DNA of 24,000 nucleotides from Mechercharimyces sp. CAU 1602 (GCF_024753565.1 NZ_JANTPT010000001.1:1173969-1197968), one strand, 5' to 3'; positions 8,123 to 23,197 are shown, counted from the first letter of the stretch. Notes: generated by a model from the sequence alone, not told the origin. Numbers and translations: made by a program.

Positions 8123-8297
8123 GTCGCTCGAGTCGAAGCCTCCTCATGAATATGGGGTGAATACCACTAAGAAAAAAGGATGAGCGACGGCTTATGGTAT
8201 ATCCTCCTCGTGAATATGGGGTGAATACCACGTACGTGTATCAACAGAAGATCAGAACGAGGGTATATCCTCCTCATAAATATGAATAGAGCTTCGA
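8087..8297 (+). CRISPR. CRISPR-like mini-array: 4 copies of a 36-nt repeat and 3 variable segments
   Basis: Consensus is GGTATATCCTCCTCATGAATATGGGGTGAATACCAC. R1 is 8087..8122. R2 is 8139..8167 (3' 29 nt only). R3 is 8196..8231. R4 is 8262..8297 (first 23 nt conserved, the rest degenerate). Spacers are 16, 28 and 30 nt with no similarity to each other. No cas1/cas2 is present in the window. Confidence 0.6.
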
Positions 8298-8313
8298 AGG
8301 CTCTTCTTATATA

Positions 8314-8351
8314 GAAAAGCGATCCGCTCACTTTGAGTAGGATCGCTTTTC
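8314..8351. terminator. Bidirectional terminator-like hairpin
   Basis: Perfect 12-bp stem GAAAAGCGATCC (8314..8325) / GGATCGCTTTTC (8340..8351) with a 14-nt loop and T-rich flanks on both strands. It lies between the array end and the stop of the convergent 8411 gene. Confidence 0.6.
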
Positions 8352-8357
8352 TCTCCT

Positions 8358-8389
8358 TAATAGCACTGTTTTCCTCGTAATAGCGGTCA
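8358..8389 (+). repeat. Right copy of the 32-bp direct repeat flanking the tnpB module
   Basis: See the left copy at 6642..6673 (28/32 identical). Confidence 0.85.
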
Positions 8390-8410
8390 TATATATCCTT
8401 TTATCTGTAA

Positions 8411-8827
8411 TTACTTAAGATACTCATCTAGAAACTCATCGAATGAATCGCATATGGGCTCTGCTGCCTCTGGATTATGTGAAATGAAGTAGTCAGTATC
8501 CAAAAATATGATTGTTGGGTCTCCGCCTCGATAATCGAAACAGAAGTGATTTTTGCCTACATCCCATGCAAAAGGGAAAATAAACTCAAACCCTTCATCA
8601 TCTTCTAGTGCTTCTTTATATTTATCAATCATTTGATCAAGGGTAAACACTTTATAGAAGTACTGTTCTTCACCATCCTTCGTTATAATCTCAATTTCAT
8701 CTTCAACCACAGCTCCATGAAACTCGGATAACCATTCGTAAAACCTGTTTGGAAAAGATATATTTAATGTTGATAAAGATTGCTTCACTTTGTGTACATC
8801 CAAACTCTTGTTTACTGATTCCCACAT
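8411..8827 (-). CDS. SMI1/KNR4 (SUKH-1) family immunity protein
   Basis: Carries ...ISFPNRFYEWLSEFHGA... and ...FAWDVGKNHFCFDYRGGDPTIIFLDTD..., typical of SUKH immunity proteins. I set the start at ATG 8827, which has GGAGG 9 nt upstream and lies 14 nt after the toxin stop. The longest ORF (8878) would add a basic RKRRKRNRR stretch read from the toxin poly-Lys tract. Confidence 0.8.
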   Translation of the reverse strand: MWESVNKSLDVHKVKQSLSTLNISFPNRFYEWLSEFHGAVVEDEIEIITKDGEEQYFYKVFTLDQMIDKYKEALEDDEGFEFIFPFAWDVGKNHFCFDYRGGDPTIIFLDTDYFISHNPEAAEPICDSFDEFLDEYLK

Positions 8828-8840
8828 GCGTGACAGCCTC

Positions 8841-10067
8841 CTATTTCTTTTTCTTCTTTTTCTTTTTATTAATGTCATCTATTTCATCACTAGTCTCGCT
8901 TTGTTTTCCCCAAATGGCGTGCCCGCCAGTATGTCGTGCACTTTCATGAACATCTCTAGGTATCAGCTGCATTCTACCCGTATCTTGATGATGATGCCAA
9001 GTATAGTCTTTAGGACTACCTTTACCTTTTCTAATATCTTGCTTAGTTTTCTCAGGAAGGTCAAAACGGGTCTCCCAATCAGGATATTTTTGCTTAAAGA
9101 GCTCTGTAGCTAATGCCAATTGTTTAGGGCTTTTGCCCACAACCTTTTCATCAGGAATGTTAATCTCTGCCACTGTCCACTCGTCAAAAACCGGAAACCC
9201 ATCATCATTATAATATACTCCGTTATGCAACTTACCAGCATATTTACTATTTACCAGGGGAATTTCCCTATCATCTGATGTTTCGGCTACTTTCTTAATG
9301 TCACCATTGGCATACTCAGAGTCTACAATATCATATGAAAAATCAGGGTCTCCAGGCTTAAGAGAGCTAAAATTCTTATCTTGTTTTTGATTGCCTGCAT
9401 CTTCGTCTTCACAACTTTTACATGATCCTCTATCAAGGGCAGAATCAATTTCGCCTTGGGTTTCTCCAGCTGGTTCTCCCTCGAGGTAAGCAGAACCTAC
9501 AATTGTAAATGGATTACGCGTGAGAGTCCACTTAGCAAGTGATTTAATATCTAATTTGGGTCGTTCAAAAACCTCATCAATAATGTCGCCAAAGTAGTCC
9601 GCCGACTCTTCTCCGAATTCTTTCCACCATGAATTCGTCGAATCTGTTTCATCATCGTGATCCAGTGGAGTAATCCCAATGATGCTCGATGAATAAGTTG
9701 CCTTCCCTAGCTCTCCAAGCGTAGGCGGGTCATTCGATGGAGAATAAATTAACTCATTATATGTTTTTTTATCTTTATCCCACTTCGTAACAATTTCTAT
9801 CCCATCATCTTGTGCAGTATTATCTCCTGAGGATAAAATCGCTCCATTATGATCACTATTAGAGCCATTATCCTCTGGTGAGCTAACCTCACCCATCAAA
9901 GTCTGTTTAACCTTATTCTGTAATGCACGTGTTATATCATTATCCTCTGAGAACACATTGAGCAGAATGGTAGCAAGTAGTACACCTGCCATCAGGATGA
10001 TAACATATTCAATTGTCGAAGAACCCTTGCTAGAACTAATAATATCTTTGAGTCGTTTTATCATCAC
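8841..10067 (-). CDS. Polymorphic-toxin-like protein: Flp/class-III prepilin-like leader + linker + C-terminal HNH/EndoVII-fold (WHH/GH-E-like) nuclease, ending in K8
   Basis: The N-terminus ...SSSKGSSTIEYVIILMAGVLLATILLNVF fits the Flp G/xxxxEY motif plus a hydrophobic helix. The C-terminus is ...DDGFPVFDEW...DYTWHHHQDTGRMQLIPRDVHESARHTGGHAIWGK. A SUKH immunity gene follows immediately. The start overlaps the upstream stop (GTGA/ATG at 10067..10062). Confidence 0.75.
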   Translation of the reverse strand: MMIKRLKDIISSSKGSSTIEYVIILMAGVLLATILLNVFSEDNDITRALQNKVKQTLMGEVSSPEDNGSNSDHNGAILSSGDNTAQDDGIEIVTKWDKDKKTYNELIYSPSNDPPTLGELGKATYSSSIIGITPLDHDDETDSTNSWWKEFGEESADYFGDIIDEVFERPKLDIKSLAKWTLTRNPFTIVGSAYLEGEPAGETQGEIDSALDRGSCKSCEDEDAGNQKQDKNFSSLKPGDPDFSYDIVDSEYANGDIKKVAETSDDREIPLVNSKYAGKLHNGVYYNDDGFPVFDEWTVAEINIPDEKVVGKSPKQLALATELFKQKYPDWETRFDLPEKTKQDIRKGKGSPKDYTWHHHQDTGRMQLIPRDVHESARHTGGHAIWGKQSETSDEIDDINKKKKKKKK

Positions 10068-10729
10068 ACACCACCAAATACAACAATTGATGCATGAACA
10101 ATAGAAGCTAGCAACGCAATAATAAAGAAGCCCACGACGGATGACAAAATGAGTACAATCACTGACTTCCAGAATTTTATGCTGTGAGCTTTACTTAACC
10201 CTATGAAAAGAAGAATAAGCGTATGAAAAAATGCTAGAATATGAAGCACGGAAACGATTAAATGAATGTAAAACCGTATAGGCTGGTCAACACGCATACT
10301 CCCATATGCATGGTAGTAAATAAACCCTTTCGTAAAAAAATTACCGTATATAGCGATTTCAATTACCCATAAAATCAACGTCATTATCAGGGGAAGGGAT
10401 GCAAATAAGATCATCTGATAAATTCTCTTCCATGTGCCTTCACCTTTAAGCATATTGCCTATCCACTTGAACAAAGGCACAAAAACAACGATTAATACAA
10501 GACCATTTAGTAGTCCGTTGAACAAAACTGTTGCTAGTACTTGTAGCAAGTCTAGATTTAACCCTATGTAGTTTTTGAATGCGCCGTTGAATGCAACTAC
10601 CAATCCCAAGAGGTATGTTAATAGAAACAGCTTCCATAATGGTATAGACTCATTGTTTAACTCCTCAAAAAAAGAGCGAGGAGACAATAAAAAGTTTCGC
10701 ATTTTAGACAGCATATACAAGTAGCTCAC
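10064..10729 (-). CDS. Yip1-domain-like polytopic membrane protein
   Basis: 221 aa with about 5 hydrophobic helices and an N-terminus ...LLSPRSFFEELNNESIPLWK.... It is translationally coupled to the toxin gene. The start is uncertain among GTG 10729, TTG 10720 (GAGG 8 nt upstream) and ATG 10714. Confidence 0.6.
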   Translation of the reverse strand: MSYLYMLSKMRNFLLSPRSFFEELNNESIPLWKLFLLTYLLGLVVAFNGAFKNYIGLNLDLLQVLATVLFNGLLNGLVLIVVFVPLFKWIGNMLKGEGTWKRIYQMILFASLPLIMTLILWVIEIAIYGNFFTKGFIYYHAYGSMRVDQPIRFYIHLIVSVLHILAFFHTLILLFIGLSKAHSIKFWKSVIVLILSSVVGFFIIALLASIVHASIVVFGGV

Positions 10730-10767: not shown

Positions 10768-10796
10768 ATTATAGCATTTGTTGGTATAACATGGAA
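10768..10796 (-). promoter_or_regulatory. Promoter candidate with an extended -10 for the yip1-toxin-immunity operon
   Basis: Minus strand has TTCCAT (10796..10791), a 17-nt spacer ending in TGC, then TATAAT (10773..10768), giving TGcTATAAT. It lies ~40 nt upstream of the operon start. Confidence 0.45.
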
Positions 10797-10833: not shown

Positions 10834-10879
10834 GTAATAGTATCTATAAGGTATTCAAATACCTTATAGATACTATTAC
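10834..10879. repeat. 46-bp perfect palindrome
   Basis: GTAATAGTATCTATAAGGTATT-CA-AATACCTTATAGATACTATTAC with 22-bp arms and no mismatch. It lies between the arpU-like stop (10897) and the toxin-operon promoter. No T-tract follows on either strand. Confidence 0.9.
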
Positions 10880-10896: not shown

Positions 10897-11331
10897 TCAC
10901 ACAACCCCCAACATCACCGCCATCTTCCGCATCGCTTCCTTCTTAATCCTCCTATACGTACTCTCACTCCACATCAACCTCGCCTGCACCTCTTTATCCA
11001 GCCGATTCTGCATGTACCGTTCCTCTAACACCAGCCGCTCATCAATATCCAACACAGCCAATGACCGCTCAATCCGCTTCACCTCTACCTCCATCCACTC
11101 TAGCCGTTCTCTCTGTTCTGTTCGCCGAATCCCATATTGCTCTGTGGTCGACACATACGCACTATAACCAGGGCTTGTCCGCTCTTCATAGACAGGGGTG
11201 CAAGACGGGAACTCTTCTTCCATCTGCAAGGTTGCTTTCCAGGTACGATAGTTTTTCAATAGCTCCTCTACCTTTCGCCGATGCACAGGCTTCTTGTTCG
11301 CTGCTTTAGTCCCTGCTGCTACCGATTCCAT
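10897..11331 (-). CDS. ArpU-family phage late transcriptional regulator (sigma-region-4-like)
   Basis: 144 aa with ...VEELLKNYRTWKATL...RIERSLAVLDIDERLVLEERYM...STYRRIKKEAMRKMA. Size, motifs and position match ArpU/RinA-type regulators. Confidence 0.7.
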   Translation of the reverse strand: MESVAAGTKAANKKPVHRRKVEELLKNYRTWKATLQMEEEFPSCTPVYEERTSPGYSAYVSTTEQYGIRRTEQRERLEWMEVEVKRIERSLAVLDIDERLVLEERYMQNRLDKEVQARLMWSESTYRRIKKEAMRKMAVMLGVV

Positions 11332-12753: not shown

Positions 12754-12949
12754 TGATAATCTCCTCCTCAGTGGCTAATCTCAGATACTTCGTTGCATAA
12801 TAACCCCTGTAACCTTCGAGTAAAACAACCATGGTATCTTCAGTCCATCTCTGCTCATCCGATCTACAAATCCACACCTTGCCACGGAATTTTTTCAAAT
12901 CCGCCTCCCCACACCCGTACATGACCACCCGATCACCTGTCTTCAGCAT
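12746..12949 (-). CDS. Hypothetical protein
   Basis: ATG 12949 is preceded by GAGGGGGAG 7 nt upstream and overlaps the upstream stop (ATGCTGA). The longest ORF starts at 12985. Confidence 0.5.
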   Translation of the reverse strand: MLKTGDRVVMYGCGEADLKKFRGKVWICRSDEQRWTEDTMVVLLEGYRGYYATKYLRLATEEEIING

Positions 12950-13182
12950 TGTTCTGCTCCCCCTCTTTCCTTGTAGCTGACCCACCGCTCCAGAAATTCG
13001 TCAGCTTCATCTCCCAGCAAGACAATGATGTTTGCCCATTCCTCATATTCGAAATCCCATCTTGAACACTTCAAAATGACCAAGACCTCATTCTCAATCG
13101 TATTTCCTCGGTTCACCCAAGCCACATCTGCTAGGGAGAATATCTCATTCACACCTCGGAAGACCATAGACACAGGTTCCAT
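12943..13182 (-). CDS. Hypothetical protein
   Basis: 79-aa ORF in the tightly packed early operon. Confidence 0.5.
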   Translation of the reverse strand: MEPVSMVFRGVNEIFSLADVAWVNRGNTIENEVLVILKCSRWDFEYEEWANIIVLLGDEADEFLERWVSYKERGGAEQC

Positions 13183-13186
13183 CCGC

Positions 13187-13435
13187 TCACCTCAGATCAA
13201 ATTTAAATGTCGATAGGTCTGCCTCCTCGATCTCGTTCGGGCTCATCCGTCGCCACCGCCCTGTGACTCTGATAAAAGACTCCTCATCTCTTATCTCAAT
13301 GATCTCAAGTATTTTGTATATCTGTTCTTCATCCTGGTTCTTATAGACGACATCACCCTTCTTAAGTCTCGAATAGTTCAACATTGGTCGAGTGAATGTT
13401 TCCGGTTTATATTCGTCAATCCAGTTAATCTTCAT
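13187..13435 (-). CDS. Hypothetical protein
   Basis: 82-aa ORF with GGAGGA 4 nt upstream of ATG 13435. Confidence 0.55.
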   Translation of the reverse strand: MKINWIDEYKPETFTRPMLNYSRLKKGDVVYKNQDEEQIYKILEIIEIRDEESFIRVTGRWRRMSPNEIEEADLSTFKFDLR

Positions 13436-13711
13436 TTCTTCCTCCCCTCATGTCCTCCACCTCTACCGAATGCATTCCTTTCTTCTGCACTTGTGGGCAC
13501 TCAACCTCATCGTTTCGCCAATCCTTATACCTCAGCGCCTCTTTCAAACCGTGAGAGAGCTTGTAATACTCCCGCCATAGGCAAAGAAAAAATTCTTCTC
13601 ATAGCAGAGTGCGCCTCCACTAGGATCTGACTCAATAATACGTATCCCTTTCTTCTCAATTGTGTGCCTCATCCAATATTGGCTCAAGATCCTCCAGGCG
13701 GAAAGTCACCT

Positions 13712-13963
13712 CTACACCCCCTTCTCAAAGTAAGCCATTGCTAATGTCCAAGTAACTAGAGCAATTGATGAACCGACGAACATGATTAGGAGCAAAATTA
13801 CGGAGTCATCACTTAAATCCGCATTCCCTATAGAGAAATAAAACACGACGGAAGCTACCATGAATGCGATTATCAGTACTTGAAACACTTCCACCTCTTC
13901 ACGCCCCTCTCGCTCCACGTTTTCGTCTGCTGATCCGCCCTTGCCGAGCCAAGTCCATAACAA
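13712..13963 (-). CDS. Small membrane protein (2 predicted TM helices)
   Basis: Hydrophobic segments are VLIIAFMVASVVFYF and ILLLIMFVGSSIALVTWTLAMAYF. The true start may be GTG 13894 (GAGGGG 9 nt upstream), just past the upstream stop at 13899. Confidence 0.5.
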   Translation of the reverse strand: MLWTWLGKGGSADENVEREGREEVEVFQVLIIAFMVASVVFYFSIGNADLSDDSVILLLIMFVGSSIALVTWTLAMAYFEKGV

Positions 13964-14150
13964 GTAGCGTCACCTCGTCTGGGTCTCTGTCCAGCGTCTT
14001 TGCAATATCGTGAAGGCTCTGTCCATCCCGCCACATCTCCACCACCTGTGGTACCTCCGCTTCGTCCCAAACAAAATCGAGGTCTTCCAACGCCACATAC
14101 AACAATCTGCGCTCAAACGGTGTAGCAACAGGCATCTCTCTTCCAGTCAT
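13899..14150 (-). CDS. Small HTH-like protein
   Basis: Carries ...VVEMWRDGQSLHDIAKTLDRDPDEVTLLVMDLARQGRI..., a sigma-region-4/resolvase-type HTH. Confidence 0.5.
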   Translation of the reverse strand: MTGREMPVATPFERRLLYVALEDLDFVWDEAEVPQVVEMWRDGQSLHDIAKTLDRDPDEVTLLVMDLARQGRISRRKRGARGA

Positions 14151-14154
14151 CTAT

Positions 14155-15048
14155 CTATTTCCCTCCCCATAAACGATAGTCTGGTCCCTGTACGGGATAA
14201 ATTCGACCATGTGACATCCCAAACAGCCTCGATGTTGCTCCTCCTCCAATCCGCTCTTCTAGGGTCTCTGAATCCTCGTTTGAGCTGTAGATAATCGGCA
14301 ACTTGGATTTATATCGCTCATTGATGATTTGAAAATACATGCTTTGTTTTGATTCGGTCGGGTTGCTCTTACCGATGTCATCCCAGACTAAGACAGGAAC
14401 CCTTGTCACCAGCCCTAGAATGCGATTCATCTCCACTCCCCCGTCACCGATCATCTTGGACTGCATCAACTCGTCCATGAATAACACGTCTGAGATGATC
14501 AACACTCGCCTCCCCTTTGCAATCAAGTCCTTCGCCATCGCCACTTGAAGATGCGTTTTCCCTAGCCCATAGTTGTTATGCTGTTTCTTCTTCTCTCTTC
14601 TCTCAGAAAGATTCTTGATAGATTTCATCCTCTGCTCACCGAACTTAGCAATAAAACCGATGCTTCGCCGATGCTCGTTCTTATCTTGTAATAGCTTAGG
14701 AAAGTCCCTCAAGTATTCCTGAGACGCATTGTACAGTGTTTTCTGCGCCCCGTTGCTCACTTTGTACTGATCAAACCAAGCCTCTTTGAATTCATCGGGA
14801 ATCATCGCTGCATGAAGCCTCTGCTTGGCTTGCTCACGAATCGAACATTCACACTGCCCAAGGTACTTCCACCTATCATCTGGATCGAGAAGGTACCCCA
14901 TCCCCTTACACGTTGGGCATTTAGTTCCCGAAGAGTCCGTCGAACTGGTCGTAGTATCCCTGTCCCGTTTCTTCTGCTTGAGCGCTTCGACCCTTGCCTG
15001 CAGTTGTTCCATCATCGGAGCTATGCTCTTCATCCCGTCTGCCTGCAT
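14155..15048 (-). CDS. DnaC/IstB-like AAA+ helicase loader
   Basis: Walker A is YGLGKTHL and Walker B is VLVWDDIG. An N-terminal CPTCKG...CEC motif is present. GGAGG lies 7 nt upstream of ATG 15048. Confidence 0.8.
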   Translation of the reverse strand: MQADGMKSIAPMMEQLQARVEALKQKKRDRDTTTSSTDSSGTKCPTCKGMGYLLDPDDRWKYLGQCECSIREQAKQRLHAAMIPDEFKEAWFDQYKVSNGAQKTLYNASQEYLRDFPKLLQDKNEHRRSIGFIAKFGEQRMKSIKNLSERREKKKQHNNYGLGKTHLQVAMAKDLIAKGRRVLIISDVLFMDELMQSKMIGDGGVEMNRILGLVTRVPVLVWDDIGKSNPTESKQSMYFQIINERYKSKLPIIYSSNEDSETLEERIGGGATSRLFGMSHGRIYPVQGPDYRLWGGK

Positions 15049-20613: not shown

Positions 20614-20622
20614 GTGAGATTA

Positions 20623-22158
20623 ATGAACAGACCAAAGAATCTCGATGTATTTATCTATCTCCGCAAATCACGAACAGATGAAGAAGAGGAGCGAAAAGCT
20701 ATTGAGGAAGGTAATCATTTTGATACTTTAGATAGGCACCGCAAACAACTATTAGATCTTGCGCGTAAAGAGGGGCACTCAATCATTGAGATTTTTCAGG
20801 AAGTGGTATCCGGAGAATATATCATCGAGCGACCTGAAATTCAACGCATGCTTCGCCAAGTAGAGTCTGGAGCAGTCGAGGCAATCTTAATTGTGGACTT
20901 AGATCGTTTAGGGCGTGGTGATATGTTTGACATGGGCAGTATTTATCGTGCTGTTCAGCATAGTGATACTTTAATAGTTACTCCTAATGAGATTATAGAC
21001 CCAAACGATGAAGGCGCAGAGCTTCTTTTTGGAGTTAAATCACTTATTTCTCGTGAAGAATTAAAATCCATCACAAAACGAATGCAAAGAGGCAGGATTG
21101 CTTCAGTCAACGAGGGGAAATCCATCTCAAAGAAACCCCCATATGGCTACCTACGGGACAACAATCATAAATTATACCCTGATCCAGATACAGCCTGGGT
21201 CGTCAAAAAAATATTCGAGTTGTGCGCTACAGGCTTCGGCAGATTAAGTATCCTCAATGAATTGCAAAACTTAGGCATCCCTAGCCCTGGTAACGCTCCC
21301 TATTGGAATGTAGTTACTATAAAAAACATACTGATGAACGAAGCCTACCTTGGACACATTGTATGGGGGAAGACTAAGTTTAAGAAAATAAATGGAAAAA
21401 CAACCTCAAAAAAATTACCAAAAGAAAAGTGGAATATAAAAGAAAACGCTCATGAGCCCCTAATCGACCAAGAGTTATGGGACAAAGCTCATGCCTCGTA
21501 TGGTCTGGATAGCCCACGAACTAAACCAGGCAAGACCTTGAAAAACCCATTAGCTGGAGTTCTCTACTGTCGTATTTGCGGATACTCAATGCATAGAAAA
21601 TCAGATAAAAACAACTGCGCCATGGTTAGGTGCTTGAGCCCTGGCTGTATAGGTATACAGAAGTCAGCCTTACTAAGGCTAGTGGAAACTAGGATCTTAG
21701 AATCTGTAGAACAGACAATAACGAGTTACAAATTGGGTGCAGTAGAAACTCAAGAAGATGATTCTTCACTTTCCATGAAAAAAGCCGTGATTATCAAGAA
21801 AGAAGGAGAGATTAAAAAACTCCAGAACCAAAAAGAGAAATTGCATGACCTTCTCGAACAAGGAATATATGACGTTAGTACATTTTTGGAGAGACAATCT
21901 AAGCTTACCGAAAAAATAAAGGCAAACTCTGACCATATAAAAAACCTCAAAGATGAGGTTGATCTGAAGACAGAGAGTCAAAAAAAACAAAAAGAATTAA
22001 TACCTAAATTACAAAATATAACTGATAGATACGAAGATACAACTGATGTGGAAGAAAAAAACAAGCTACTAAAGTCGGTGATTAAAAAGGTTTTGTTTAG
22101 TCGAACAAAGCGAACAAAGAAGGATGACTTTGAGTTAGAAATATTCTTCCACATATAA
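20623..22158 (+). CDS. Large serine recombinase (phage integrase, SPbeta SprA-like)
   Basis: Carries VFIYLRKSRTDEE (catalytic Ser context), ...IVDLDRLGRG..., the recombinase-domain PPYGY, the Cys cluster CRICGYSM...C..VRC..PGC, and a long K/E-rich coiled-coil tail. ATG 20623 is preferred (AGGTGAG upstream); the ORF track starts at GTG 20614. Confidence 0.9.
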   Translation: MNRPKNLDVFIYLRKSRTDEEEERKAIEEGNHFDTLDRHRKQLLDLARKEGHSIIEIFQEVVSGEYIIERPEIQRMLRQVESGAVEAILIVDLDRLGRGDMFDMGSIYRAVQHSDTLIVTPNEIIDPNDEGAELLFGVKSLISREELKSITKRMQRGRIASVNEGKSISKKPPYGYLRDNNHKLYPDPDTAWVVKKIFELCATGFGRLSILNELQNLGIPSPGNAPYWNVVTIKNILMNEAYLGHIVWGKTKFKKINGKTTSKKLPKEKWNIKENAHEPLIDQELWDKAHASYGLDSPRTKPGKTLKNPLAGVLYCRICGYSMHRKSDKNNCAMVRCLSPGCIGIQKSALLRLVETRILESVEQTITSYKLGAVETQEDDSSLSMKKAVIIKKEGEIKKLQNQKEKLHDLLEQGIYDVSTFLERQSKLTEKIKANSDHIKNLKDEVDLKTESQKKQKELIPKLQNITDRYEDTTDVEEKNKLLKSVIKKVLFSRTKRTKKDDFELEIFFHI

Positions 22159-22258: not shown

Positions 22259-23197
22259 ATGCTTAACAAATCCCATCGTGTCCTCCTGTTGGAAATGGGG
22301 ATGAAGTCCCTTGGCAACATTGCTCGTCAATGTGCTGTTGTACGCCCCCAACTCGGGGCGATTACGAATGTAGGCGAAGCTCACGTAGGAAGCCTTGGTG
22401 GGATGGATACTGTCGTCAAAGCTAAGCAGGAACTGATCAACGGTATGCGTAAAAACTCCACGATCTTTCTCAATGCAGATGACAAACGTTCCACTAAATT
22501 ACAAACAAATCGCTATCCTGGGACTGTAAAAACATTTTCTATTCATAATAAAGCGCATCTGCGGGCTAGTAACATCCGTTATACAACCAAGGGAATGTCC
22601 TTTCATCTCACCATGAATGGAGTCAAGTGCGGGGAAATGACTGTCCCCATGATCGGGGTTCACAACGTATACAATTGTTTACCGGCCATTGGTATCGCAA
22701 CAGAGATGGGGTTGTCGTTAGCGGAAATTCGTAGTGGTCTGCTACGAATGAGTGCTCCCAAAATGAGAATGCAACCAATTTCCGCAGGTAGAGGTAGACT
22801 GTTAATTAACGATGCATGGAATGCTAGTCCCTCTTCCATGAAAGCAGGAATGGAAGTATTTGCGCAAATTGCTCCTCATCGACCCGCCATCGCTGTTTTA
22901 GGCGATATGCTCGAGCTAGGTGCTCATTCTTCCTATTGGCATAAGCATATAGGTAAAATGGTCGCCACCATGCCTCTCTATCGGCTAGTTACCGTCGGCA
23001 CCCATGCCAAAAAAATTAGTGATACAGCCATTCAAAACGGATTTGCTCGCAATCGCGTGATTCACTTTCAAAGTTCCAATCAAGTTGCCTCCTACTTGGC
23101 CCGCGTCGCACCTGAAAAAGCCGCAATATACTTTAAAGCCTCGCGCAAATTTCGTTTCGAAAATATCATTCGATCACTTCTGCAACGGCATAACTAA
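22259..23197 (+). CDS. murF: MurF-like Mur ligase, 3' two-thirds only (5'-truncated by the prophage; likely a split gene)
   Basis: Carries LLEMGM...ITNVGEAHVGSLGG...NDAWNASPSSMKAG...VLGDMLELG...FKASR. The P-loop GxxGKT and the N-terminal domain are absent. Homology continues in frame upstream of the first ATG to about 22172. Confidence 0.8.
   Translation: MLNKSHRVLLLEMGMKSLGNIARQCAVVRPQLGAITNVGEAHVGSLGGMDTVVKAKQELINGMRKNSTIFLNADDKRSTKLQTNRYPGTVKTFSIHNKAHLRASNIRYTTKGMSFHLTMNGVKCGEMTVPMIGVHNVYNCLPAIGIATEMGLSLAEIRSGLLRMSAPKMRMQPISAGRGRLLINDAWNASPSSMKAGMEVFAQIAPHRPAIAVLGDMLELGAHSSYWHKHIGKMVATMPLYRLVTVGTHAKKISDTAIQNGFARNRVIHFQSSNQVASYLARVAPEKAAIYFKASRKFRFENIIRSLLQRHN

Follow-up and report, generated by a model that had tools for sequence, protein, structure and literature searches.

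A prophage-borne cassette in Mechercharimyces sp. CAU 1602 encodes a predicted WHH nuclease toxin headed by a Flp-type pilin module

The Yip1, toxin and immunity genes

The DNA analyzed here is a stretch of 24,000 nt from Mechercharimyces sp. CAU 1602 (NZ_JANTPT010000001.1, 1173969–1197968; hereafter the window, with all its positions counted from its first letter). At 8411–10729 it carries a cassette of three closely packed minus-strand genes, which encode a Yip1-like membrane protein, a polymorphic toxin in which a Flp pilin module is joined to a WHH nuclease domain (Flp::WHH), and an immunity protein of the SUKH type. When the coordinates were re-read from the sequence, the three open reading frames (ORFs) were found where a preliminary description, made from the sequence alone, had placed them. 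The Yip1 gene (minus strand, 10729..10064) encodes 212–221 amino acids (aa), depending on the start codon; GTG 10729, TTG 10720, ATG 10714, and ATG 10702 are all in-frame candidates. Its stop codon TGA (10066–10064) shares one base with the ATG of the toxin gene (10064–10062) in the sequence TGATG, in agreement with the coupling of the two genes noted before. From this ATG the toxin gene (minus strand, 10064..8841) specifies 407 aa, which is also the length of the database copy of the toxin, P0001; the 408 aa reported in the preliminary description are obtained from the alternative GTG at 10067. The toxin stop codon TAG (8843–8841) is immediately followed by an AGGAGG Shine-Dalgarno sequence (8840–8835) and then by the ATG of the immunity gene (minus strand, 8827..8411; 138 aa), so that the immunity gene indeed follows closely, with 13 intergenic bases instead of 14. 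A mechanical ORF list sets the immunity start at an upstream in-frame ATG (8878) within the toxin gene, but we regard 8827 as the real start because it is marked by the AGGAGG sequence.

The pilin module of the toxin

The toxin begins with a prepilin-type leader, MIKRLKDIISSSKG (aa 1–14; minus strand, 10023..10064), whose last residue, G14, is an invariant glycine in our alignment A1. It is followed by a mature Flp-like pilin module (aa 15–59; minus strand, 9888..10022) that consists of the motif SSTIEY, a hydrophobic helix of approximately 21 aa, and a further, amphipathic helix with LMGE at its end. The cleavage region thus reads KG|SSTIEY and leads into the hydrophobic helix VIILMAGVLLATILLNVF. 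In order to avoid circularity, a Flp profile was built only from five pilins that are encoded directly after tadC in Laceyella sacchari, L. putida, Hazenella, Baia, and Thermoactinomyces. This profile matched aa 4–59 of the toxin with an E-value of 4e-13 (46 bits, in a search of 2,419 ORFs) over profile positions 12–67 of 68, and the alignment reaches from the end of the leader through the cleavage motif and the hydrophobic helix to the second helix, which is amphipathic. Genuine Flp pilins terminate at this point (IKGKE*), whereas the toxin runs on into an acidic linker. The Pfam family DUF4244, which papers annotating Tad loci in Bifidobacterium and Corynebacterium identify as Tad prepilin, matched aa 1–60 alone with 28.6 bits (cut-off 27; profile positions 2–53 of 54), and four related toxins exceed this cut-off as whole proteins (33–40 bits).

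In the 12 sequences of alignment A1, the residues G-1, T+3, and Y+6 relative to the cleavage site do not vary, and 11 of the sequences have E+5. The same three residues occur in all 15 toxins that were compared, 14 of which also have E+5, and [KRQD]G directly precedes the cleavage site in 15/15 toxins as well as in 7/7 Flp pilins. Over its whole length the toxin module is 35–52% identical to Flp pilins from Tad loci. Together with the common head of approximately 17 toxins and the location of two of their genes beside Tad operons (see below), the profile and DUF4244 matches support at the level of homology what was the riskiest call of the preliminary description, a Flp/class-III prepilin leader recognized by eye. 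As judged from these alignments, the N-terminus is a whole pilin module and more than a leader. A LXG or MuF head was ruled out, as had been assumed, since LXG was found neither by Pfam nor by NCBIfam and MuF was absent in the Pfam scan of the toxin. Flp pilins in the strict sense comprise about 50–80 aa and are encoded in a tad locus; the toxin has 407 aa and lies in a prophage, and on sequence grounds it is a pilin-module fusion rather than a pilin proper. One related toxin, L001 from Hazenella, has Gln in place of Glu at position +5 of the module (G|SSTLQY). In type IV filament systems, it is the tip-located minor pilin that typically lacks Glu5.

Linker, nuclease domain, and immunity protein

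The pilin module is followed by an acidic, D/S/E/G-rich linker or pre-toxin region (aa 60–264; minus strand, 9273..9887) that has no Pfam match; the net charge is -27 over aa 57–280. The only two cysteines of the toxin, C215 and C218, are located here as a C215-x2-C218 pair (nt 9422–9411). Such a close pair accounts for the only cysteines in 13/13 full-length family members surveyed, which were the window toxin and those of loci L001, L002, L003, L005, L007, L009, L010, L012 (with two pairs), L013, L018, L019, and L021; in L018, an additional Cys occurs near the start of the mechanically called ORF. In toxins linked to Yip1 the pair is situated between the central region and the toxin domain, and in the group without Yip1 directly after the pilin module. 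The two cysteines probably form an extracytoplasmic disulfide loop, and their conservation as the only cysteines of all 13 proteins suggests that the passenger is exported. That the loop serves as a nicking joint, as in AB toxins, is speculation.

The preliminary description had assigned the C-terminus to HNH/EndoVII nucleases of the WHH or GH-E kind. The domain (aa 265–387; minus strand, 8904..9272), with WHHH at nt 8999–8988 and HTGGH at nt 8933–8919, belongs to the former, as it scores above the Pfam cut-offs for both Colicin-DNase (1.1e-17, 65.1 bits, cut-off 25) and WHH (9.2e-17, 61 bits, cut-off 25.1). It is also matched by the Rhs C-terminal toxins of PDB entries 8bd1 and 8h8a (4e-06 by sequence and 1e-09 by profile), and in alignment A3 the motifs T-W-H-H-H-Q and H-T-G-G are invariant. 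An AlphaFold model of the toxin domain from the single sequence displays the expected strand-strand-helix order at the motif, but is unreliable (predicted local distance difference test score, pLDDT, 40.5). The C-terminal sequence and the eight terminal lysines quoted earlier are present (lysine tail, aa 400–407; minus strand, 8844..8867). The C-terminus of the ortholog P0004 reads HKKKRKSKKKNK, and the other WHH relatives lack a lysine tail. The lysine codons of the tail are AAA and AAG (window 8844–8878), and in another frame the same segment encodes the peptide KRKRRKRNRR, which is continuous with the immunity ORF from ATG 8878. We take this continuity to be a coincidence of frames; a slippage-dependent, extended immunity product is a possible alternative.

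The assignment of the downstream gene product to SUKH-1 immunity proteins was borne out by Pfam matches above the cut-offs to SMI1_KNR4 (3.3e-13, 50.8 bits, cut-off 25.4) and SUKH_6 (1.8e-09, 38.6 bits, cut-off 27). In addition, a profile of the immunity proteins of the family matched Bacillus subtilis YobK (PDB 2prv, 1.1e-11) and Lin2918 (2icg, 0.005).

A family of pilin-headed toxins

Word-indexed protein searches with aa 1–275 of the toxin and with the Yip1 protein returned the query itself only. The family emerged in an exhaustive phmmer search, which together with contig look-ups and scans of genomes and metagenomes revealed approximately 17 loci encoding Flp::toxins. All named source genomes belong to the Thermoactinomycetaceae, namely to Hazenella, Laceyella, Salinithrix, Marininema, Melghirimyces, Kroppenstedtia, and Planifilum. 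P0003, a strong phmmer match, proved to be a repeat protein resembling those of eukaryotes; it was considered spurious and removed. Behind the common head, the C-termini of the relatives are of the WHH, LHH, Endonuclea_NS_2, phospholipase-like, or weakly EndoU type, or could not be assigned to a family. The PT-TG pre-toxin domain was detected in three relatives, and other central regions occur elsewhere. The immunity genes located downstream of the toxin genes encode SUKH proteins, YezG-like proteins, or novel and unrelated small proteins. According to these domain assignments, no fewer than five kinds of toxin domain are found behind the pilin head. Because a common head is combined with variable C-terminal toxins, each with its own immunity gene, the Flp::toxins are, as far as protein architecture tells, a family of polymorphic toxins in which the usual place of LXG is taken by a pilin module.

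The closest relative of the cassette, in Melghirimyces algeriensis (L024), is frameshifted; its toxin is 46% and its SUKH protein 53% identical to those of the window. Most family members are chromosomal and lie outside prophages. A second prophage with a relative was found in Salinithrix halophila (L021, 437–9324); it is unrelated to that of the window and encodes a Terminase_2 small terminase subunit (TerS), a T4-type large subunit (TerL), and an SPP1 portal. Its Flp::WHH toxin gene (3616–5271) is followed by a putative immunity gene for an acidic protein of 153 aa (5277–5738), and the cassette occupies the same slot as in the window, with a sigma-like regulator and a methylase on one side and the terminase and portal genes on the other. 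At another S. halophila locus (L019, 3598–14375), an Flp::Endonuclea_NS_2 toxin and its YezG-like immunity gene are located directly after a type I restriction-modification operon, with an orphan leaderless toxin fragment (12868–13929) and its own SUKH gene (13932–14375) farther downstream. Orphan toxin-tip/immunity cassettes of this sort were not found downstream of the cassette in the window, where the next element is an IS605 TnpB gene. Neither blastn of the cassette against GenBank phages nor a scan of IMG/VR with the leader alignment yielded a match in these phage collections, and the three cassette proteins had no match in PHROGs or NCBIfam.

Yip1 and signal peptidase I as partners

The first gene of the cassette encodes, as described before, a Yip1-like protein with about five transmembrane (TM) segments: the Pfam Yip1 match is well above the cut-off (2.3e-16, 60.6 bits, cut-off 28.6; profile positions 3–172 of 173), and the hydropathy plot has five hydrophobic blocks. 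Yip1 genes, in one to three copies, are found directly upstream of the toxin gene in 11 of the 16 loci that could be assessed, and the Yip1 protein of the window is only 19–27% identical to those of the other cassettes. Yip1 similarity is independent of toxin type, as is evident from the Yip1 proteins of L001 (WHH toxin) and L007 (other C-terminus), which are 64.5% identical. The role of Yip1 therefore appears tied to the head of the toxin and not to immunity. The preliminary description had left a choice between an export or maturation factor and a second immunity component; the former is the better fit to these comparative data, and the latter was set aside. We regard Yip1, on the basis of this gene neighborhood, as a family-specific accessory and the usual upstream partner of the Flp::toxins. 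According to the literature found, the only studied bacterial Yip1 protein is YknW, which modulates the assembly of a membrane export complex.

Six loci, the window not among them, contain a gene for a signal peptidase I of family S26 (about 150 aa) upstream of the toxin gene. The six S26 proteins have an N-terminal TM helix and intact signal peptidase I (SPase I) boxes (GxSMxP, RGD, KRV, and GDxRxxSxDSR), and look catalytically intact by these motifs. Four relatives that have neither Yip1 nor S26 (L013, L018, L019, and L021) have in common a central domain that is hydrophobic and rich in glycine (for example, AAGVGLLFVPGGQAFGAGILIGA...GGAAGAVGGGVSGGVARG) and resembles glycine-zipper membrane segments. 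This domain might replace the function of Yip1 or act in the entry into target cells.

Proximity to Tad loci

In Laceyella sacchari (L003), genes for TadB, TadC, Flp, a VWA protein, several membrane proteins, and three TadE-like proteins run unbroken into a Yip1–Yip1–toxin–immunity cassette. In Marininema (L010), an S26–Yip1–toxin–immunity cassette is located approximately 2.2 kb upstream of a Tad operon with the gene order A24 prepilin peptidase, SAF/CpaB-like protein, TadZ, TadA, TadB, TadC, and Flp. The Hazenella genome has a complete Tad operon with an A24 peptidase, and three cassettes elsewhere in the genome. With some dozen independent chromosomal loci, two of which adjoin Tad genes, such adjacency is more frequent than chance would predict (P ~0.003 by a rough estimate, for which the target was taken as about 25 kb and the genome as about 3.5 Mb). 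Toxin-free Tad loci encode neither Yip1 nor S26. Two further observations concern the Tad loci themselves. In L003, one of the TadE-like pseudopilins is fused to an M23 peptidoglycan peptidase (7718–8572), and in Hazenella four tandem paralogs of a VWA lipoprotein follow the Flp gene (L014, 10229–16482); both are unusual features for the Tad locus of a monoderm.

Possible export routes

The reading that we favor, and hold to be moderately probable, is that the toxin undergoes Tad-type prepilin processing and is then exported or displayed by a Tad system with the assistance of Yip1. The pilin module would insert into the membrane and the passenger would cross it, after which the Cys pair would close its extracytoplasmic disulfide loop. 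The presumed TadV-type A24 prepilin peptidase of the host would cut after Gly14, and the presumed host Tad machinery would extract the module and either display the toxin on the pilus or expel it. Yip1 would help to load or mature these bulky pilin fusions, as would the dedicated signal peptidase I in many relatives. Neighboring cells without the SUKH protein would suffer DNA damage and be killed, which would give lysogens an edge over non-lysogens. Only tentatively do we go further and suggest that these Gram-positive bacteria also use their Tad pilus as a weapon and that the Flp::toxins are "toxic pilins." In that case Yip1, with or without signal peptidase I, would load the fusions, and after processing by the prepilin peptidase they would become part of the Tad filament, either at its tip or along its length. 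Nuclease, lipase, and other warheads would then reach neighboring cells by contact, and the conserved disulfide loop would be a nick-and-release joint. By capturing the cassette, temperate phages would have armed their lysogens.

Several findings weigh against Tad-mediated export. Only two of the approximately 17 loci, L003 and L010, are adjacent to Tad genes, and the cassette of the window is not among them. With the full-length toxin, the DUF4244 score of 23.4 bits is under the Pfam cut-off of 27, and Flp_Fap had no match in the toxin at E-values up to 10. Position +2 is Ser in the toxins and Pro in the major Flp pilins; the toxins therefore form a clade of their own, the function of which may have diverged. 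A comparison of the pilin heads with the Flp pilin of the same genome showed no clear co-variation, and as it was weakly suggestive for Hazenella only, it was not used as evidence. S26, present in six relatives, does not belong to the Tad components and points to a release step independent of Tad, and five relatives (L013, L018, L019, L021, and L030) have neither Yip1 nor S26. AlphaFold single-sequence models of the toxin domain and of the SUKH protein were unusable (pLDDT ~40).

The main rival is a release by the Sec pathway and signal peptidase without any Tad contribution, with the Flp-derived head co-opted as an unusual signal-anchor. The toxin would then be translocated by Sec or YidC with the assistance of Yip1, cut on the outer face of the membrane by a type I signal peptidase, which would be a dedicated enzyme in many relatives and the housekeeping one here, and freed as a diffusible, bacteriocin-like DNase. 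Such a route would agree with the intact SPase I boxes and N-terminal TM helix of the S26 proteins in six cassettes, with the large distance of most cassettes from Tad genes, and with the lack of S26 and Yip1 in toxin-free Tad loci, which marks them as other than general Tad parts. Dedicated signal peptidases for atypical substrates are also known, an example being SipW with its substrate TasA. A signal-anchor, however, has no need for the G-1, T+3, E+5, Y+6 motif and the amphipathic second helix that are kept across 15 toxins, and no consistent AXA-type site follows the hydrophobic helix in the compared toxin sequences. Moreover, the window, L003, and L024 carry Yip1 without S26, and two cassettes adjoin Tad operons. 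On balance, we consider this route rather unlikely. Release by lysis, as in colicins and pyocins, appears improbable to us. Here, the toxin would be tethered to the membrane by its pilin-like helix, the head having no role in export, and would be made with the phage late genes or in a subpopulation and freed when the prophage lyses its host. The position of the cassette just downstream of an ArpU-like late activator gene and upstream of the packaging genes would fit, as would the relative in the same slot of the unrelated prophage L021, which lacks Yip1 and S26. Most family members, however, are chromosomal and outside prophages, and in the window a strong hairpin lies between the late regulator gene and the cassette, which is preceded by a -10 candidate of its own. 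Conservation of the Cys pair and of the pilin motif also speaks for an export that precedes lysis. We give least credence to an intracellular module for addiction, abortive infection, or superinfection exclusion, with Yip1 and SUKH as antidotes or sensors. It is true that phage-borne toxin/antitoxin pairs are common and that YknW works in the protection against the SDP toxin. However, none of the three cassette proteins matched a PADLOC defence model, and the common head, swapped C-termini, PT-TG domains in relatives, and SUKH or YezG-like immunity proteins constitute the architecture of exported polymorphic toxins; in addition, the Cys pair suggests an extracytoplasmic passenger, and Yip1 similarity is unrelated to toxin type. 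This makes an intracellular function very improbable.

Relation to known toxins and pili

Polymorphic toxins are classed by the secretion route of their N-terminal domain, such as the type V, type VI, or type VII secretion system (T5SS, T6SS, T7SS/LXG), MuF, and others. The LXG toxins of the T7SS, including B. subtilis YobL–YobK and YeeF–YezG and the toxins of SPbeta prophages, follow the same logic of a head, a linker, a swappable nuclease, and a downstream immunity gene. They also share families with the Flp::toxins, namely SUKH (YobK, 2prv, 1e-11), the YezG-like and Endonuclea_NS_2 proteins of L019, and the PT-TG linker of some relatives; SPbeta-like phages even encode a WHH-type homolog with 39% identity and nearby SMI1/KNR4 genes. 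Unlike them, the protein described here has no LXG domain but a Flp prepilin head with a TM helix, its partners are Yip1 and, in relatives, signal peptidase I instead of WXG100/Lap helpers, and the implied route is Tad or Sec instead of the T7SS. The WHH nucleases of Rhs proteins (T6SS; PDB 8bd1 and 8h8a) have a homologous toxin domain in which the WHHHQD...HTGG core can be aligned, but the delivery scaffold, an Rhs cage with PAAR/VgrG in Gram-negative bacteria, differs entirely.

On the pilus side, the Flp pilins of Tad (type IVc) systems, including the DUF4244 pilins of Actinobacteria and Thermoactinomycetaceae, have the same Gly-ended leader, G|xxTxEY motif, and two helices. They differ in that they comprise 60–75 aa, have Pro at +2, and are encoded in a tad operon, whereas the protein of the window comprises 407 aa, has Ser at +2, and belongs to a prophage. 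In Streptococcus sanguinis PilB and PilC, a functional module is likewise placed on the C-terminus of a pilin via a linker; according to the retrieved passages of the corresponding paper, such modular type IV pilins are proposed to be presented by the filament, probably at its tip (PMC8179133). As described there, PilB and PilC are type IVa-like, with the IPR012902 motif, a globular pilin domain, and adhesive cargo (vWA, lectin), and these passages contain no toxin cargo on modular pilins (PMC8179133). The carrier found here is, by contrast, a minimal Flp module of about 45 aa, and its cargo is a toxin accompanied by an immunity gene. A Tad-type machine has also been linked to the killing of neighboring bacteria in Myxococcus xanthus, where the Kil Tad-like apparatus is reported, in the passages retrieved, to be required for contact-dependent prey killing (PMC8460266). 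Kil belongs to a diderm predator, and no pilin-fused toxin is named in these passages; in the present case the toxin itself bears the pilin module and the killing is inferred.

The only earlier report of toxin domains on Flp pilins that was found in our literature search is a single phrase in a survey of architectures, given without analysis, which lists ARC (CD38-like) toxin domains as fused to "Flp pilins" (JBC 2025, PMC12605009). It concerns another toxin domain and does not touch on Yip1, S26, Tad linkage, or phage carriage. Of the terms pilin, Flp, prepilin, Yip1, and signal peptidase, none occurs in the text available from the foundational polymorphic toxin survey. As far as we found, the pilin module as a trafficking head is thus essentially undescribed as a class. 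If Tad systems do export or display these toxins, type IVc pili would gain a function beyond adhesion, there would be a concrete candidate for the killing by Tad-like systems, and bacterial Yip1 proteins, the functions of which are almost unknown, would obtain a testable role. Should the toxins even be toxic pilins, they would represent a new contact-dependent delivery route in monoderms, and a cargo would be shown for a Tad machine for the first time. Their carriage in two unrelated prophages indicates that lysogenic conversion can supply interbacterial weapons, which would depend on a machine of the host if the Tad reading holds true. The cassettes are small, with three or four genes, and are carried by type strains that can be cultivated, among them Hazenella coriacea DSM 45707 and Laceyella sacchari DSM 43356, so that the question of export is directly testable.

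Control signals and prophage setting

The candidate for an extended -10 element proposed in the preliminary description, TGcTATAAT (TGCTATAAT), was confirmed by direct sequence reading at 10768..10776 on the minus strand, but it lacks a good -35 hexamer and is missing from the list of a consensus scan. Between this element and the gene of the ArpU-like regulator lies a perfect 21-bp AT-rich hairpin (minus strand, 10834..10879) with an RNA folding energy of -30.9 kcal/mol (z = -8.6 against shuffled sequences) and no adjacent T-run. It is probably a terminator or insulator, and possibly an operator or a recombination site. At the other end of the cassette, after the immunity gene, the terminator scan and the sequence revealed a GC-rich hairpin with a T-run (minus strand, 8311..8350). 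As this hairpin falls within the span between two 35-nt direct repeats (6639–6673 and 8355–8389), it could be either an intrinsic terminator or a subterminal hairpin of the adjacent IS605-family element. The GC content of the cassette is 38%, compared with 45–46% in the phage and host flanks. By virtue of this low GC content, the upstream hairpin, its own -10 candidate, and the downstream hairpin, the cassette looks like an independently transcribed, autonomous moron. The sole match of an Rfam scan, an Alpha_RBS hit within the toxin gene, was below threshold and was taken as chance.

Phage genes on both sides of the cassette in the window substantiate its description as a prophage moron. Read from the right, the gene order is serine recombinase, Bro-N, DnaC-like loader, RusA, glucosaminidase, and sigma-region-4/ArpU-like activator (10897–11331), then the cassette, and thereafter IS605 TnpB, ParB-methylase, HNH, TerS, and TerL. 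The cassette is hence inserted between the late regulator and the packaging genes. The IS605-family element (6639–8389) directly beyond the immunity gene encodes TnpB only (6835–7932, plus strand), a protein with OrfB_IS605 and Cas12f1-like TNB domains. The direct repeats flanking the element are 86% identical and may represent its left- and right-end hairpin regions, and a 39-nt repeat occurs in four copies downstream of tnpB (8086–8299). At the closest related cassette, L024, the gene of an IS200 Y1 transposase is located approximately 1.2 kb downstream. Since IS elements lie near both cassettes, IS200/IS605 elements may be involved in moving the cassette.

At the other end of the prophage, the gene of the large serine recombinase (20614–22158) adjoins a gene of the Mur ligase family (22259–23197), in which the Mur_ligase_M match begins at profile position 52, so that the gene seems to be N-terminally truncated. 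Intervening elements that integrate into genes and split them are known from spore-formers, and a Mur-ligase-type gene may have been split in a similar way by integration of the prophage. Just upstream of the terminase genes TerS and TerL, the window encodes an HNH endonuclease (3151–3465) and a fusion of ParB_N with an N6_N4 DNA methylase (3807–5231); HNH and methylase genes next to TerS and TerL are a common order in phages with cos/HNH-dependent packaging.

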